Shown: positions 5,145 to 63,641 of the stretch, in pieces
How positions within the stretch are numbered: position 1 is the stretch's first letter
How the letters are laid out: each line of letters opens with the position of its first letter
NCBI GenBank assembly: GCA_030698565.1
Contig: JAUYJS010000003.1
Span: 12,187 to 76,186 of the forward strand
Length of the DNA stretch: 64,000 nt
Source: Candidatus Shapirobacteria bacterium
GTDB lineage: Bacteria > Patescibacteriota > Microgenomatia > UBA12405
Reading direction: 5' to 3'
Program-made: the position numbers and the translations under genes
Notes under the pieces: model-generated
Database searches by the model: none
Told to the model about the DNA's origin: nothing
The model's input: only the letters and a program-made list of their open reading frames with translations

Positions 5145-7106
5145 ATGATCACCCTCGACAAACTCGATCTACAAAAAATGTCTCCCGAGGAAATGGGCGA
5201 ACTTTTGGTCGAAGCCAAAAAGGCTTACTACATAACTAGTAAACCAATAATGGACGATCATACTTACGATACATTAGAGGAAATTTTACGTCAAAAAAGT
5301 CCTTATCATCGGCTTTTTAGTAAAGTCGGCAATCAGAATTTTGATACCGGATTCAATAAAAAAAAGCACACCATGCCTATGGGTTCTCAAAACAAAGTAA
5401 ATATCTACACTGATTTAATTCATTACTTCGAACTCAAGCAAAAGGCTGCAGGCGACATTGATATGAACAGTATTTCTTACGTTGTTCAACCCAAATGCGA
5501 TGGTATTTCTTTGGAAATTGAATATAAAAATGGTCAATTAGTCGACGCCATTACTCGTGGTGATGGGGAAATAGGAGACGTGATTACCCAAAATGTCGTT
5601 AAAATGAAAAATTTTGTCCCAGAAATTAAAGATGATTTTACCGGCTCCGTCCGCTGTGAAATTGTCATGACATTTGAAAATTTTAAAAAAATAAACGACC
5701 TACAAAACATTTATTCCAACCCTCGCAACGCCGCCTCTGGTATATCTCAACGTCTCGACAGTAAATATTCCGAATATTGTAGTCTCTATGCTGTCGATAT
5801 TTATTCATATAATGTACGGGCGATTCACGAATCGCCCTTTTCATCTGAAATTCAAAAAATTGAATATTTAAAAAAACACAATTTTGTTACTGTCGATACT
5901 CTCTGTTGTCCAAAAATTAACGAAGTAGAGCCGATCTATCAAAAATATTTAACCGAAGATCGCAGAGCGTATCCTTTTGAAATCGACGGTTTGGTTATCA
6001 AAATAAACGATCTTGATTTGCAAAGAAAACTTGGTTTTCATAATAACCGGCCCAAAGGTCAAGTTGCCTACAAATTTCCCTCAAAAACCAACCAAACTAG
6101 AATTTTATCGGTTAACTGGCAAGTCGGTCCGATGGGGACTATCACACCCGTTGCCCAAGTTGAACCGATTGAAATTTCTGGTGCTGTTATTACATTTGCA
6201 TCGCTCGCCAATTACCAACTTATCAAAGATAAAAATATAAATGTGGGAGATGTAGTTGAAGTCAGCCGCCGGGGAGATGTTATTCCTCACATCGACAAAG
6301 TAATTACTAAAGTCAACGAAGGTCATTTTTTAGCACCAACACTCTGTCCCTCATGCGACACCAAACTTATTTTGGAAGATAAATTTTTGCGTTGTCCCAA
6401 TATTTCTAGTTGTCCAGCTCAAATTTTTGGAAGTCTCAAATTATTTTGTGACGCCCTCGATATTAAAGGCATTTCCGATAAAACCATAGAAAAACTTTAC
6501 CAAGCTAGTCGTGTTCGTTTGCCAGGCGATTTTTATAAATTAAAAATTTCTGATTTTGAAGATTTAGCTGGCTTGGGAACCAAATCGGGAACCAATATTG
6601 TCAAACAAATTCAGGACAAAAAAACCTTAAATCTAAAACAAGTACTAGGTGCCGCCATTATTCCAAATTTTAGCAACGCTCGGATTCAACAGATTATTAA
6701 TGCTGGCTTTGACACTCCCGATAAAATCTTAAATATTACCACAGACCAATTAGAAAACCTGCCGGGAGTTAAACAAACATTGGCTCAAAAAATTTATCAA
6801 GGCATTCAGTCGCGTAAAAATTTTATCGAATCAATACTTGCTCAAGTTAGCATAAAGAAAATTAGCCAATCTCAAAAATTAGCCAACCAAACTTTCGTAA
6901 TAACTGGAAGCCTAGATCATCCTCGTGAGGAAATCATAAATGAAATCGAATCACTCGGCGGCAAAGTTGTTTCAACCGTCAGCCAAAATACTTCTTATCT
7001 TATTACCAACGAAACCAACTCCAATTCTTCCAAATTTGTCACCGCTCAAAAATTAGGAACCAAGATAATCAATGAAGCTGAATTCTATGATTTAATTAAC
7101 CAATGA
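5145..7106 (+). CDS. ligA: NAD-dependent DNA ligase
   Basis: It has the adenylation motif KCDG (VQPKCDGISLEIEY), zinc-finger cysteines, HhH and a C-terminal BRCT-like region, in 653 aa. Confidence 0.9.
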   Translation: MITLDKLDLQKMSPEEMGELLVEAKKAYYITSKPIMDDHTYDTLEEILRQKSPYHRLFSKVGNQNFDTGFNKKKHTMPMGSQNKVNIYTDLIHYFELKQKAAGDIDMNSISYVVQPKCDGISLEIEYKNGQLVDAITRGDGEIGDVITQNVVKMKNFVPEIKDDFTGSVRCEIVMTFENFKKINDLQNIYSNPRNAASGISQRLDSKYSEYCSLYAVDIYSYNVRAIHESPFSSEIQKIEYLKKHNFVTVDTLCCPKINEVEPIYQKYLTEDRRAYPFEIDGLVIKINDLDLQRKLGFHNNRPKGQVAYKFPSKTNQTRILSVNWQVGPMGTITPVAQVEPIEISGAVITFASLANYQLIKDKNINVGDVVEVSRRGDVIPHIDKVITKVNEGHFLAPTLCPSCDTKLILEDKFLRCPNISSCPAQIFGSLKLFCDALDIKGISDKTIEKLYQASRVRLPGDFYKLKISDFEDLAGLGTKSGTNIVKQIQDKKTLNLKQVLGAAIIPNFSNARIQQIINAGFDTPDKILNITTDQLENLPGVKQTLAQKIYQGIQSRKNFIESILAQVSIKKISQSQKLANQTFVITGSLDHPREEIINEIESLGGKVVSTVSQNTSYLITNETNSNSSKFVTAQKLGTKIINEAEFYDLINQ

Positions 7107-29707: not shown

Positions 29708-29751
29708 ATATGTCTATTTTACCAAAGAAAAAAACTTCTATTGTTATTTTG

Positions 29752-29796
29752 TACCGAAGGAGGGAACCTGCCTGCCGGCAGGCAGGTCGAACCCCC
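29752..29796 (-). repeat. Duplicated 3' fragment of tRNA-Leu (T-arm plus acceptor 3' strand) with a 20-nt perfect GC palindrome inserted in the T-loop
   Basis: The minus-strand sequence is GGGGGTTCGA-[CCTGCCTGCCGGCAGGCAGG]-TTCCCTCCTTCGGTAC. The real tRNA has GGGGGTTCGATTCCCTCCTTCGGTA. Confidence 0.7.
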
Positions 29797-29807
29797 ATTG
29801 TTCTCTG

Positions 29808-29891
29808 TACCGAAGGAGGGAATCGAACCCCCACAACATTGCTGTCACACGATTTTGAGTCGTGCGCGTCTACCAATTCCGCCACTCCGGC
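29808..29891 (-). tRNA. tRNA-Leu (anticodon CAA)
   Basis: It folds by hand: acceptor GCCGGAG/CTTCGGT, D-arm GCGGAATTGGTAGACGC, anticodon stem CACGA/TCGTG with loop CTCAAAA, a long variable arm, the T-arm GGGGGTTCGATTCCCTC and discriminator A. No CCA is encoded. Confidence 0.85.
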
Positions 29892-46528: not shown

Positions 46529-46556
46529 GTAGAGACGCGCTGCAGCGCGTCTCTAC
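46529..46556. repeat. REP family B palindrome (GTAGAGACGCGCTGCAGCGCGTCTCTAC)
   Basis: It is a perfect 28-nt palindrome. Together with about 35 nt of 3' flank it is nearly identical to 63577-63638. Confidence 0.8.
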
Positions 46557-46591
46557 AACTTGTCAAATTTTTTAATAAAATCACACCTATC

Positions 46592-46619
46592 GTAGGGGCG
46601 ATTCATGAATCGCCCCTAC
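46592..46619. repeat. REP family A palindrome (GTAGGGGCGATTCATGAATCGCCCCTAC)
   Basis: It is a perfect 28-nt palindrome. Five more copies lie around the RAYT gene at 54997-55683. Confidence 0.8.
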
Positions 46620-53363: not shown

Positions 53364-54452
53364 TTATTTTCTAAATATTCTCATCACATCTCCAGCCGTT
53401 ATCAACAATATCAAACTCAAAAGAATCAGCATTCCAACATTATTCACCGCCATTTCAACTTTTTGGTTAGCTCTTTTTCTAAAAATCATTTCATAAATCA
53501 CAAAAATAATTCTGCCACCATCCAATGCCGGAAACGGCAATATATTCACTACCGCCAAGTTAACCGACACAACTCCAAAAAAATGAACCAAAGCCAACAT
53601 TCCTTGGCTTTTTTTGATACTACTTGTCGCCTCAAACATTCCAATCGGACCACTCACATCTTTGGGTATCTGACCCATTAATAATTTTTGGACCATACTG
53701 CCAACCCCACCACCTATAATTTTTCCCCAAAAAAAGGCTTCTTTAAACCCAGCCCCAATACCTTTATAAAACTGATACCAAGGCACTTTTACCATTTCTG
53801 TATTGGAAATTGCTACCCCCATACCCCCCTCGCCCTGCGGTGGATTCTCCCTTATACCTATATTAATTTGTTGATCTTGATTGTTTCTTTTTATATCCAA
53901 AGACACAGTCTTACCTTTAAATTTAGCTACCTCAGAAGTTAATTCACTTGGGTTAGTAACCACTTTAGAATCCACTTTATATATCTGGTCATCTTCTTTT
54001 AGTCCAGCTATCTCAGCCGGAGAATTTTGGGCTATTCCCACAATTTTTACCCTATCTGTTTCCTGGGGAACCCCTAATATTGCATAAACAAAACTAAAAA
54101 TAACAATTGCCAGCACCAAATTCATCAACACTCCGCCCAATACTATTATTAATTTTTGCCATGGATTTTTATTATTAAAAGCAATACCACCTTTACCACC
54201 ACCGTCCTCTCCGTACAATCTACAAAATCCACCGATTGGTAGTAAATTTAAACTAAAGGTGGTCTTGCCAATTTTCTTACCAAAAATTTTCGGTGGTAAT
54301 CCCAAACCAAACTCTTCTACCCTAACCCCAGTTTTAATGGCTGCAATAAAATGCCCAAATTCATGAACCAAAACTAAAATTGACAGAGCAACAATAAAAA
54401 TTAAAATATCCATATAATTATCCCCTAACTTCCACCTCTTTTTTCTTAGCAA
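53364..54452 (-). CDS. rseP: RseP / site-2 protease (M50 zinc metalloprotease with PDZ)
   Basis: It has HEFGH in TM1, a PDZ domain, and a C-terminal TM segment with LDGG. Confidence 0.85.
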   Translation of the reverse strand: MLRKKRWKLGDNYMDILIFIVALSILVLVHEFGHFIAAIKTGVRVEEFGLGLPPKIFGKKIGKTTFSLNLLPIGGFCRLYGEDGGGKGGIAFNNKNPWQKLIIVLGGVLMNLVLAIVIFSFVYAILGVPQETDRVKIVGIAQNSPAEIAGLKEDDQIYKVDSKVVTNPSELTSEVAKFKGKTVSLDIKRNNQDQQINIGIRENPPQGEGGMGVAISNTEMVKVPWYQFYKGIGAGFKEAFFWGKIIGGGVGSMVQKLLMGQIPKDVSGPIGMFEATSSIKKSQGMLALVHFFGVVSVNLAVVNILPFPALDGGRIIFVIYEMIFRKRANQKVEMAVNNVGMLILLSLILLITAGDVMRIFRK

Positions 54453-54969
54453 TTTCTTCTAATTTACCAATATACTGATCAGTTGTTTTTTGTAATTCTA
54501 CTTCGTCTCTCTTAAATTCGTCTTCAGAAATAGTTTTATCCTGTTTTGCATCTTGCAAACCTTTTCTAAAATCTGCCCTAGCATCGCGAGTCATTACTCT
54601 AGCCGCCTCTAATTTTCTACCCAAAAGCTTAATATATTCTTCCCTTTGTTCCGACGTTAACATCGGCAAATTCATTCTAATTAATTGCCCATCGATAGCC
54701 GGTGTCAACCCCACATTTGCCGCCGCAATTCCATTAGAAATTTCTCGTATTGCCGCCTCATCCCATGGTTGAAAAGTCAATGATCGAACATCGGGCACAC
54801 CAATCGAGCCAAGTTCTACCAATTTCATTTTTTGACCACCATACACACTCACCACTACATTTTCAATCAAACCCGGAGTCGCCCGTCCAGTCCGAATTGA
54901 AGCAATATCAGTAGAGAATAATTCCACAATCTTGTCCATTCTTTGCTTCACTTTTTGAAAATCAATCAT
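54418..54969 (-). CDS. frr: Ribosome recycling factor
   Basis: The N-terminus is MIDFQKVKQRMDKIVELFSTDIASIRTGRATP. Confidence 0.9.
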   Translation of the reverse strand: MIDFQKVKQRMDKIVELFSTDIASIRTGRATPGLIENVVVSVYGGQKMKLVELGSIGVPDVRSLTFQPWDEAAIREISNGIAAANVGLTPAIDGQLIRMNLPMLTSEQREEYIKLLGRKLEAARVMTRDARADFRKGLQDAKQDKTISEDEFKRDEVELQKTTDQYIGKLEEIAKKKEVEVRG

Positions 54970-54996
54970 ATTTCAAATTATACCAAAATGTTTCCG

Positions 54997-55683
54997 TACG
55001 GGCGATTCATGAATCGCCCCTACATTTAAAATTTTTCGGATTATTTCTATCTCTTTCCCACATTATCGGATTCATTCTTATATATTCTCTAATTTTTTTT
55101 AACTCAATTTCGTTTCTAACGATATGTTCATAATAATTCCGTTGCCAAACAAACATTCCAATCTCTCTAGATGCATTCATTTTCAAATATCCGATAATTT
55201 TTGACAACATCGATCTCTTCGGTAGGGGCGATTCATGAATCGCCCTGTTTAATTTCCTAATTGATCCATTTATCAATTTGGGCGATTCATGAATCGCCCC
55301 TACATTTTTTATTATTAAAATTAAATGAATATGATTGGGCATTATCTGAAAAATATCCATTACCAAATCAAATCTTGCCTCTAATTTTATTAACCAATTT
55401 TCAATTATTAAACCATTATTATTCGAGATCATCTTGCCATTAATAATGGCACCAAACATTTGCCTTCTTTCAAATGAACATATGGTTATAAAATAATATC
55501 CTCCGCCTGAATAATTCCATTTTTTTAACCGGATTGACCTACGGTGATAATCCATATGTAATAATTATTACATATTATTATTTGTACGGGCGATTCATGA
55601 ATCGCCCCTACCCGTCATCCCGAATTTATTTCGGGATCTAAATCCCGCATTCCTTTTTTGGGCGATTCATGAATCGCCCCTAC
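54997..55683. repeat. Five copies of REP family A surrounding and inside RAYT gene 1
   Basis: The copies are at 54997-55023, 55222-55247, 55279-55303, 55585-55612 and 55659-55683. Each contains GGGCGATTCATGAATCGCCC. Confidence 0.8.
55007..55555 (-). CDS. REP-associated tyrosine transposase (RAYT, IS200/IS605-like HUH), copy 1, with REP-A sequences translated in frame
   Basis: It has YYFITICSFERRQMFG (motif I), MPNHIHLIL (HUH) and WQRNYYEHIVRNEIELKKIREYIRMNP (catalytic Tyr region). GAIHESP occurs twice, and the C-terminal CRGDS is encoded by REP-A copies. Confidence 0.75.
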   Translation of the reverse strand: MDYHRRSIRLKKWNYSGGGYYFITICSFERRQMFGAIINGKMISNNNGLIIENWLIKLEARFDLVMDIFQIMPNHIHLILIIKNVGAIHESPKLINGSIRKLNRAIHESPLPKRSMLSKIIGYLKMNASREIGMFVWQRNYYEHIVRNEIELKKIREYIRMNPIMWERDRNNPKNFKCRGDS

Positions 55684-55692
55684 AAATTTATT

Positions 55693-56151
55693 TTAAATCT
55701 CAAACCTAGCAATTCGGCCTAATTTTATATTTTCACCAAATTTTGCATTCAAAGCTTTAATCAAGTCGTCTACTGTTTTAGAAGAATCTTTCACAAAGTC
55801 TTGTTTTAATAATTCTTCTGGTGTTTCCGGATTCATAGCAGCCACCTGTAAACATAATTCTCTGGATAAATTTACAAACTCTTCATTTTTGGCCACAAAA
55901 TCGGTTTCGCACAACAACTCCACCATGGTTCCAATCTTACCTGTTGAATGGGTATAAGTAGCAACTCTGCCCTGATGTGTTTCTTTTTCCGCTCTTTTTT
56001 CAGCTTTTTTAAATCCTCTTTCTTTTAAAATTTTCTTGGCTGACTCTTCATTTCCCTCAGCTTCTTCCAAAGCCGACTTAATTTCCATAATCCCCAAACC
56101 CATTTCTTCTCTTAATTTTTTGACTAATTCAATTATTTTTTTATTATCCAT
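55693..56151 (-). CDS. tsf: Elongation factor Ts (short form)
   Basis: It has an N-terminal UBA-like LVKKLREEMGLGIMEIKSALEEAEGN, in 152 aa. Confidence 0.8.
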   Translation of the reverse strand: MDNKKIIELVKKLREEMGLGIMEIKSALEEAEGNEESAKKILKERGFKKAEKRAEKETHQGRVATYTHSTGKIGTMVELLCETDFVAKNEEFVNLSRELCLQVAAMNPETPEELLKQDFVKDSSKTVDDLIKALNAKFGENIKLGRIARFEI

Positions 56152-62919: not shown

Positions 62920-63576
62920 TTAATAACAAACATCTTTCTGCCAATTTTTGGGATTATTATCAATATATTGTTTAATCGCCCAATATTCCTTTTCTGTCCG
63001 GATAATCCGATCATAATATCGGGCTTGCCAGGTGAAAAATAACTGGTGACGGTTACATTCTGATTTGACCGCCGCCTTAAATAATTTAATTGTATTGGGA
63101 ATAATTTGCCTTGATTTAAATCCATTTTCCCGTAGAGACGCACTGTGTGCGTCTCTTTTCAATTCCCGATTATTTTGGTTTATCGGTTTGATTTGATTGA
63201 TGATTGGGGAATTTGTTTTGAGACGCATACAATGCGTCTCTACAATGGGTTGATTTTTAATTTCCATTATCAAATGCACATGATTGGGCATAATCACCCA
63301 ATCATCTATTTTAATATTTTTCCTAATTTCCGAGGTTTTTAATAATTCCTGTTTAGCAATTTCTCCCGCCTTGGACAATTTCATTTGACCATCAACAATT
63401 TTTCCCAAGAATTTATTTTTATTATGGGTACAAATGGTAATAAAATAAAACCCTGATTGAGAATAATTCCAATTTAATAACCTCGCCGATTTCACTCGAA
63501 ATTTATCCGCAAACAAATCTGGGTTATCAACAAACATTACATTAATTGTAATATTTATTGCATTAATATGTTGCAT
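62920..63576 (-). CDS. REP-associated tyrosine transposase (RAYT), copy 2, cognate to REP family B
   Basis: It has FYFITICTHNKNKFLG, MPNHVHLIM and WQARYYDRIIRTEKEYWAIKQYIDNNP. ETHCMRL and RDAHSASLRENG are in-frame translations of REP-B copies. Confidence 0.75.
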   Translation of the reverse strand: MQHINAINITINVMFVDNPDLFADKFRVKSARLLNWNYSQSGFYFITICTHNKNKFLGKIVDGQMKLSKAGEIAKQELLKTSEIRKNIKIDDWVIMPNHVHLIMEIKNQPIVETHCMRLKTNSPIINQIKPINQNNRELKRDAHSASLRENGFKSRQIIPNTIKLFKAAVKSECNRHQLFFTWQARYYDRIIRTEKEYWAIKQYIDNNPKNWQKDVCY

Positions 63577-63604
63577 GTAGAGACGCGCTGCAGCGCGTCT
63601 CTAC
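63132..63604. repeat. Three REP family B copies in and at the 5' end of RAYT gene 2
   Basis: The copies are at 63132-63156, 63220-63243 and 63577-63604. The last is GTAGAGACGCGCTGCAGCGCGTCTCTAC, identical to 46529-46556. Confidence 0.8.
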
Positions 63605-63641
63605 AACCTGTCAAATTTTTTTAACAAAATCACACATTTTT

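Follow-up and report, generated by a model that had tools for sequence, protein, structure and literature searches.

A probable REPtron with in-frame REP palindromes in its own transposase gene in a Candidatus Shapirobacteria genome

We have analysed a 64-kb stretch of a Candidatus Shapirobacteria contig (the window) and describe within it a locus at 54996–55683, where a predicted REP-associated tyrosine transposase (RAYT) gene, RAYT-1, lies among five copies of a repetitive extragenic palindrome (REP), here called REP-1, two of which are inside the gene itself. The locus is very probably a REPtron, comprising a RAYT gene of subclass 2.4 / group 4 and its cognate GTAG-footed REPs, in the form of an insertion of ∼700 bp in the spacer between tsf and frr. 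REPs have landed repeatedly in the enzyme's own gene. The phenomenon has been described before; what is new is the host lineage, Candidatus Shapirobacteria.

RAYT-1 is predicted to be an intact RAYT enzyme

RAYT-1 (55007–55555, minus strand) encodes 182 amino acids, starting MDYHRRSIRL, and its open reading frame (ORF) contains the motifs YYFITIC, MPNHIHLIL, WQRNYYEHIVRN and REYIRMNP. A first-pass annotation, made from the sequence alone, had read the ORF as a RAYT and proposed a check against the Pfam model Y1_Tnp (PF01797). The reading held: Y1_Tnp scores 25.1 bits, above its cut-off of 23, which places the protein in that superfamily, REP_Tyr_transpos (NF047646) is the top NCBIfam family, and both profile and structure comparisons lead to TnpA-REP of Escherichia coli (4ER8). 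A profile of 24 homologues matched 4ER8 with E = 1.6e-6, with the HUH motif and the WQ..EH..R...Y..NP block aligned. In the profile alignment, the HUH histidines of RAYT-1 (H75-I-H77) pair with those of 4ER8, and the catalytic tyrosine Y158 and the conserved N162 pair with Y115 and N119. W137, Q138, Y142, E143, H144 and R147 align with W94, Q95, W99, E100, H101 and R104, the E. coli residues that touch the GTAG guide (legend to Fig. S11, PMC6006769), as expected of a RAYT. All residues that are invariant across the 24 homologues (H75, H77, N140, Y141, E143, R147, Y158, N162 and P163) are kept in RAYT-1, whose length and C-terminal end also agree with those of the homologues.

The AlphaFold model of RAYT-1 has a predicted local distance difference test score (pLDDT) of 77.5 overall and above 90 in the core; it falls below 50 at residues 86–110, which is exactly the stretch encoded by REPs. 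The best Foldseek match of the model is 4ER8_A (root-mean-square deviation, rmsd, 2.6 Å; template modelling scores 0.59/0.64), with IS200/IS605 transposases far behind, and the top 30 matches are TnpA-REP or IS200/IS605 TnpA structures only, as the fold assignment predicts. Membership of the IS200/IS605 family itself is not indicated, the NCBIfam model transpos_IS200 giving 12.9 bits against a cut-off of 55, and no tnpB-sized ORF was found among the ORFs around the locus. Taken together, sequence and model suggest that RAYT-1 is an intact HUH/Y1 enzyme of the RAYT / TnpA-REP type, most likely functional rather than a pseudogene.

Five REP-1 copies flank and interrupt the gene

REP-1, GGGCGATTCATGAATCGCCC, is a perfect palindrome of 20 nucleotides (nt). 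A search that allowed up to three mismatches found seven copies in the window, six exact and one with a single mismatch, while 100 dinucleotide-preserving shuffles of the window gave none. Five exact copies lie at the RAYT-1 locus, each with a GTAG foot, three of them flanking the gene and two internal. The first-pass annotation had named all five sites, two upstream, two translated in frame and one providing the stop codon, and this arrangement is exact. It had described them as perfect palindromes of 22–28 nt, however, whereas the unit at the locus is the 20-nt palindrome with a one-sided GTAG foot, and the perfect 28-nt form occurs elsewhere, at 46592–46619. Beyond the five sites there are two more copies in the window, one intergenic (46592) and one in ligA (5818). 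The flanking GTAG-tagged REPs, together with these dispersed copies, are what is expected if RAYT-1 is a REP-flanked RAYT gene.

Read on the RAYT-1 strand, the order is the tsf stop codon, copies a and b, an AT-only palindrome, the ORF with copies c and d, and copy e. Copy a (55660–55683, minus strand) has a GTAG foot and the 20-nt palindrome, lies 9 nt from the tsf stop codon and bounds the inserted unit on its upstream side. Copy b (55584–55611, minus strand; palindrome at 55588) follows 48 nt from copy a and has the form GTAG-core-GTAC; it ends 29 nt 5′ of the RAYT-1 start codon. Copy c (55280–55303, minus strand) lies within the ORF, where its GTAG and core encode V85 G A I H E S P92 right behind the HUH strand. 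Copy d (55222–55245, plus strand; 55249–55222 as the inverted REP-CTAC; core at 55226) is inverted, with its GTAG foot on the plus strand; the minus strand of this copy encodes R104 A I H E S P L111. Copy e (54996–55023, minus strand; palindrome at 55000), again of the form GTAG-core-GTAC, is the downstream edge of the unit and ends 7 nt from a conserved TTTTGGTATAATTTG motif upstream of frr.

Copies c and d form an inverted, REPIN-like doublet (55222–55303) that encodes the low-confidence loop at residues 86–110. As single-stranded DNA (ssDNA) the doublet is predicted to fold into one long hairpin (−32.7 kcal/mol, z = −10.4). The translation of RAYT-1 includes VGAIHESPK and LNRAIHESPLPK. Of the three frames in which REP-1 can be read, a single one is free of stops, the other two containing TGA or TAG, and the open frame is the one used by both internal copies and by the copy in ligA. 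Use of the sole open frame in these three copies is a signature of purifying selection. Copy e is read in another, second frame, as CRGDS followed by a stop codon, the TGA (55007–55009) being the centre of the palindrome.

The AT-only element is a perfect 22-nt palindrome, ATATGTAATAATTATTACATAT (55554–55575), and the start codon of RAYT-1 falls within its reach; an operator function or a role as a translation-control hairpin is conceivable, as is a chance origin in AT-rich DNA. A scan of 54900–55800 found promoter-like sites at chance level, and the terminator-like matches in the same interval are the REPs themselves. In an Rfam scan of 54800–55900 the hairpins matched microRNA-precursor and small-RNA models below threshold only, none coming near the gathering score.

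In-frame REPs are insertions in the RAYT family

We then surveyed 80 ORFs, made up of 78 relatives from GTDB genomes of many phyla and the two RAYT genes of the window, the second of which is described below. Relatives occur in other lineages of the Candidate Phyla Radiation (CPR), namely Parcubacteria (L009), Roizmanbacteria (L053) and Saccharibacteria (L066). A tagged hairpin was defined as a perfect hairpin with a GT[AG]G or C[TC]AC tag, and was counted in the interval from the HUH to the WQ motif. At least one was present there in 51 of the 80 ORFs, and the remaining 29 had no perfect one. The density of tagged hairpins was 4.40 per kb between HUH and the catalytic Tyr, 0.16 in the N-terminal part and 0 in the C-terminal part of the gene, 1.54 in flanks of up to 300 nt and 0.10 in distant flanks. 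The 66 in-gene hairpins represent 62 distinct sequences, so that the sequence varies between relatives while palindromy stays. Two frames are used (V-G-A... and C-R-G...), both orientations occur, and pairs usually have the order GTAG-hairpin then hairpin-CTAC.

In an alignment of 24 sequences VGAxxxxP stands behind the HUH strand in nearly all, and the variants of the heptamer are those predicted from base pairing: GAIHESP, GAIHELP (with GCA for Ala), GANHDSP, GAHHDAP and RAIRESP. In some relatives the same peptide is found elsewhere, within a different loop or as part of an extension at the N terminus. Two relatives (L048 and L069) are REP-free; in these the HUH strand runs directly into the next helix, the whole REP segment is absent and all motifs are kept. 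The alignment check proposed in the first-pass annotation, whether the GAIHESP segments are insertions relative to homologues, is thereby answered: they are. Since L048 and L069 lack the hairpins, the 28-residue segment VGAIHESP...RAIHESPLP is an insertion; and because REP-free relatives are without the segment, and the hairpin sequences are diverse yet palindromic, we take the in-gene REPs in general to be insertions and not a native peptide. The pattern fits repeated REP insertion into tolerant loops, and argues against both a native motif and a pseudogene held open by chance.

In five further relatives (L017, L022, L040, L054 and L063) the same loop contains tandem arrays of short peptides, among them GKRQARDAGK three times, GPCAVPK four times and QPREINNG four times; to judge from their sequences, these look like REP arrays expanded in frame. 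The orientation of flanking REPs showed no consistent pattern across the 80 ORFs, and a fixed orientation, as at the ends of insertion sequences (IS), was rejected on these grounds.

A second system lies within 8 kb of the first

RAYT-2 (62920–63576, minus strand), just upstream of dprA, encodes 218 amino acids with 35% identity to RAYT-1. It scores 56.1 bits with REP_Tyr_transpos (cut-off 80) and 20.8 bits with Y1_Tnp, short of the Pfam cut-off. A copy of its own REP family, REP-2 (GTAGAGACGCGCTGCAGCGCGTCTCTAC, 63576–63605), abuts the start codon, and in-frame REP-2 variants are found after the HUH motif, in GTAG...CTAC order (63134–63240, minus strand), where 63220–63240 is read as IVETHCMRLK and 63134–63156 as KRDAHSASLRE. 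The in-gene and extragenic REP-2 copies differ by compensated stem changes only (three compensated pairs). REP-2 also has a dispersed copy (46529–46556), which shares the ybeY–dnaX spacer with a REP-1 copy 35 nt away. Within the window there is thus one RAYT gene per REP family, and RAYT-2 with its REPs is an internal replicate of the RAYT-1 architecture.

REP-1 copies have dispersed

REP-1 has spread within this genome to the ybeY–dnaX spacer and to ligA. The spacer copy (46592–46619) is a perfect 28-nt 'double foot' REP, GTAG...CTAC, with the sequence GTAGGGGCGATTCATGAATCGCCCCTAC. In the spacer as a whole (46529–46619), both REP families are represented by a single perfect 28-nt copy; the two copies lie 35 nt apart, each forming its own hairpin. 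The ligA copy (5814–5837, plus strand) has a GTAC foot and one mismatch, and contributes the in-frame residues V R A I H E S P.

The gene for this NAD-dependent DNA ligase (ligA, 5145–7106, plus strand) reads NVRAIHESP over the REP-1 variant, and onward NVRAIHESPF. Among 50 aligned Shapirobacteria LigA proteins the insert is missing from most, and at least 11 others have different inserts in the same loop, of which VETHHDASLQ, CRDAINRVST, VGTRHALS and GRMSEGQVG resemble translated REPs. From this alignment, the loop looks like a recurrent hot spot for in-frame REPs.

The exact 24-mer comprising GTAG and the core occurs in at least 120 metagenomic stretches, from contigs of 28–67% GC. We analysed the context of 85 sites in 80 of these stretches: 4 fall within RAYT genes and 2 close to one, another 52 are without a RAYT in the surrounding 700 nt, and 27 are too near a contig end to be judged. 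The REP-1 sequence is thus common to very different organisms and mostly extragenic. We considered whether REP-1 has its main reservoir in the in-gene copy, and rejected this on the basis of the 4 sites of 85 within RAYT genes and the 52 without a RAYT in the vicinity.

Elsewhere in the window (29749–29891), a tRNA-Leu(CAA) gene (29807–29891, minus strand) has behind it a second, incomplete copy of its own 3′ end (GTACCGAAGGAGGGAA...TCGAACCCCCA), which is interrupted by a palindrome of 20–22 nt, CCTGCCTGCCGGCAGGCAGG; a near-identical palindrome is present in an unrelated contig (L084, 8889–8912). It may represent a third palindromic repeat family or the remnant of an integration site.

The unit occupies the tsf–frr spacer

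RAYT-1 and its flanking REPs lie between tsf (55693–56151), which encodes a 152-amino-acid EF-Ts and has rpsB upstream, and frr (54418–54969), which has an M50/RseP protease gene downstream. Three related genomes whose Frr is 81–83% identical (L086, L087 and L089) have the order rpsB–tsf–frr, with a tsf of the same 152 amino acids, and rseP is next in L086 and L087. Ahead of frr, their tsf–frr spacer of 60–72 bp contains a GC-rich hairpin, a run of T and a motif resembling TATAAT, and no pyrH, RAYT or REP was found within ∼8.5 kb of it. The TTTTGGTATAATTTG motif is retained in the window just behind the last REP. These comparisons indicate that the ∼700-bp unit was inserted into the tsf–frr spacer, or else was lost from the relatives. 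The spacer hairpin itself differs among the three relatives; in the window the terminator-like hairpin is missing, and REPs stand in its place.

The first-pass annotation had placed the element where pyrH normally lies and noted that pyrH is absent. A tblastn search of the window with E. coli PyrH as the query found no match. That the element took the place of pyrH is not borne out, as the relatives have only the 60–72-bp spacer at this position. Because all three have rpsB–tsf–frr without pyrH, its absence from the locus is the norm in this lineage, and pyrH was not displaced.

How the arrangement may have arisen

If RAYT-1 works as its homologues E. coli TnpA-REP and IS608 TnpA do, it would bind the REP hairpin in ssDNA, with its W-Q...Y-E-H..R helix reading the GTAG foot; Tyr158 would cut and rejoin the DNA, and the HUH histidines would hold the metal. 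REPs or REP doublets would thereby spread around the genome. Of the REPs that have landed in the gene itself, the survivors are insertions in the sole stop-free frame and in the surface loop that joins the HUH strand to the helix behind it, where they are read as a disordered loop of 26–28 residues (VGAIHESP...RAIHESPLP). A copy in another frame ends the ORF, as in CRGDS and its stop. The residues needed, and stable target-like hairpins, are all present at the locus.

Several points weigh against reading the locus as a REPtron of subclass 2.4. The 50.3 bits obtained with REP_Tyr_transpos miss the curated cut-off of 80 bits, and an identical protein in a Candidatus Shapirobacteria metagenome-assembled genome is labelled hypothetical by NCBI. 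The Y motif, YIRMNP, is one position off the YIxNNP of the subclass, and the assignment to that subclass was made from motifs, architecture and REP type rather than from a phylogeny with the reference set. Lastly, the counts of REPs and RAYT genes are a census of 64 kb of a 186.6-kb contig and not of the genome.

Are the in-gene REPs merely tolerated, or are they kept by selection on the nucleic acid? They could serve as a cis site through which the mRNA or gene is autoregulated, or as a heritable 'seed' passed on along with it; we regard this as possible but doubtful. In its favour, the closest relatives of RAYT-1 (L081, L084 and L085) retain the two in-gene REPs at unchanged positions in the protein and have no extragenic REP within 5–10 kb, and in 22 of the 51 hairpin-bearing ORFs the 300 nt on either side of the gene are free of tagged hairpins. 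Compensation accounts for most of the stem differences, as in the three RAYT-2 pairs and in a T:A to A:T change (L081, L084/L085) by which I becomes N and E becomes D; one change, found in L085 only, is uncompensated. Among the top 120 homologues, 96 of 107 V-G heptamers fit a perfect palindrome, compared with 34–49 in column-shuffled controls, and hairpins are denser in the interval than in the immediate flanks (4.40 versus 1.54 per kb). On the other side, REP-free members of the family retain all motifs, and in 29 of the 80 ORFs the interval is devoid of perfect tagged hairpins. The hairpins vary in position, frame, number and orientation, as they would after repeated, tolerated insertion. 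Since only 4 of the 85 metagenomic sites are inside RAYT genes, the gene copy is not the main reservoir. Selection is, moreover, not required to restore a perfect palindrome: template switching within a strand can do so, as can conversion from REP copies elsewhere.

In a related proposal, the inverted REP pair inside RAYT genes of subclass 2.4 is itself a selected nucleic-acid module, acting in self-regulation, in mobilisation of the gene or as the seed that founds the REPs of a new host. The pair does travel with the gene between phyla, and compensated stem changes drag the peptide along; we consider the proposal doubtful all the same.

A further extension is that the whole REP-REP-RAYT-REP unit moves, as an autonomous IS200/IS605-like element that entered the tsf–frr spacer intact and has the same-strand outer REPs as its ends. 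The unit is absent from the three related genomes, in which the 60–72-bp spacer is intact; the outermost REPs (55660–55683 and 54996–55023) are co-oriented like the end hairpins of IS608; and the nearest RAYT relatives are found at other, unrelated loci, P0012 and P0016 being syntenic with one another beside rplL/rplJ and P0003 lying beside Big_1 proteins. The synteny of P0012 and P0016, however, fits vertical descent, and loss from the relatives, or gain by recombination, would explain the empty sites equally well. The unit occurs once in the window, and the cluster to which its protein belongs contains nothing else, from no more than one contig. The lack of tnpB, the low transpos_IS200 score and the inconsistent orientation of flanking hairpins across the 80 ORFs also speak against it, and REPtrons are reported not to move as units (PMC6006769). 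Movement as a unit is accordingly an improbable account, on a par with the two preceding ones.

The first-pass annotation had offered two explanations of the locus, namely that REPs had invaded their own transposase gene or that the ORF is a pseudogene kept open by chance. The first is borne out. A decaying pseudogene would be consistent with the 'hypothetical' label, with the NCBIfam score below cut-off and with a C-terminus derived from a REP; but the catalytic and GTAG-contact residues and every residue invariant in the 24 homologues are present, the length and C-terminal end are those of the homologues, the core is modelled with a pLDDT above 90, and both internal copies, like the ligA copy, use the sole stop-free frame, so that this explanation is very improbable.

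Least probable of all is that GAIHESP is a native conserved peptide from which the genomic 'REPs' were copied as fragments: VGAIHES/LP is indeed the majority form at its position (71 of 107 among the top 120 homologues) and G86 and P92 are invariant in alignment A1, but the variants co-vary as base pairing requires (I-E-S, N-D-S, H-D-A and, with GCA, A-L), unrelated hairpins occupy the same place in more distant relatives, LigA reads the same palindrome as RAIHESP, RAYT genes are distant from the majority of metagenomic copies, the structure of the segment is not predicted with confidence (pLDDT < 50), and GAIHESP in non-palindromic codons was not seen in any of the loci examined.

Returning to the REPtron reading, the locus leaves the current picture of REP biology unchanged. 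It shows REP–RAYT systems in small CPR genomes, and REPs in LigA and within a ribosomal-factor operon. RAYT-1 was labelled hypothetical and missed by the NCBIfam model, and the REP-encoded loop is probably part of the cause; many such CPR genes are therefore likely to be under-annotated. With two adjacent systems that have different REPs, empty sites in relatives and compensated hairpins, the region also offers a comparison set for selection on in-gene REPs.

Comparison with known systems

A full-text literature search for the peptide AIHESP found no paper, and among the top-ranked matches listed for RAYT or TnpA-REP in CPR/Patescibacteria none was relevant, one preprint mentioning RAYT in an archaeon. 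The closest known systems are those of TnpA-Y1 subclass 2.4, which Quentin et al. (2018; BMC Genomics 19:475, PMC6006769) equate with RAYT group 4. The subclass is characterized there by the motifs NH[IFV]H, WQ and YIxNNP and by 'double foot' REPs, and its 'unique feature' is the presence of in-frame REPs in the tnpA-REP gene between HuH and Y, the insert being modelled as a peripheral loop. Group 4 is rare in Proteobacteria and occurs in 17 bacterial classes (Bertels et al., 2017; PMC5581495). The first-pass annotation had considered a compact, self-targeted system outside Proteobacteria unusual; according to these two sources, in-frame REPs are instead a published hallmark of subclass 2.4 / group 4, which is common elsewhere.

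RAYT-1 shares with subclass 2.4 the NHIH and WQ motifs, a similar length (182 amino acids versus a subclass mean of 194), in-frame REPs between HuH and Tyr in the β3/αC loop, and REPs that are GTAG-footed or, at 46592–46619, of the 'double foot' type, the canonical alternative being long GT[AG]G REPs. A Chlorobium member listed in Table S1 of PMC6006769 has the REP GTAGGGGCAATTCATGAATTGCCCCTAC, which is one compensated pair (G:C to A:T) apart from REP-1. Apart from the Y motif, the differences are that the host belongs to the CPR, a group not named in the available sections of PMC6006769 and PMC5581495, that a REP also supplies the RAYT-1 stop codon, and that two systems with different REP families lie less than 8 kb apart in the window.

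With E. coli TnpA-REP and its REPtron (4ER8; Ton-Hoang 2012; Messing 2012) the locus has in common the fold, the HUH motif, the catalytic Tyr and the Asn, the GTAG tetranucleotide at the hairpin foot, REPs flanking the gene, and five of the six GTAG-contact residues, the sixth being W in E. coli and Y in RAYT-1. The E. coli enzyme belongs, by contrast, to subclass 2.2 (DHLH, WE, YIHYNP), has bulged long REPs with none in the gene, and is ∼16% identical to RAYT-1. IS200/IS605 TnpA proteins (IS608, ISDra2) use the same HUH/Y1 chemistry on ssDNA and act on hairpin ends with a 5′ guide tetranucleotide, and the outer two hairpins at the RAYT-1 locus share the same-strand orientation of such ends; unlike those elements, RAYT-1 has no tnpB, is present in one copy in the window (the other RAYT being 35% identical) and differs in structure by an rmsd of 6–12 Å.

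Finally, GTAG REPs, and REPs in frame within many genes, were described by Di Nocera et al. (2013). As with these intragenic REPs and the palindromic elements of Rickettsia, palindromic repeats here add short in-frame peptides to proteins that are normal in other respects; DNA ligase and further genes of replication and repair are among those that receive such inserts. What differs here is that the element's own transposase is among the decorated genes, and that the LigA loop has been struck by several REP families in related genomes.

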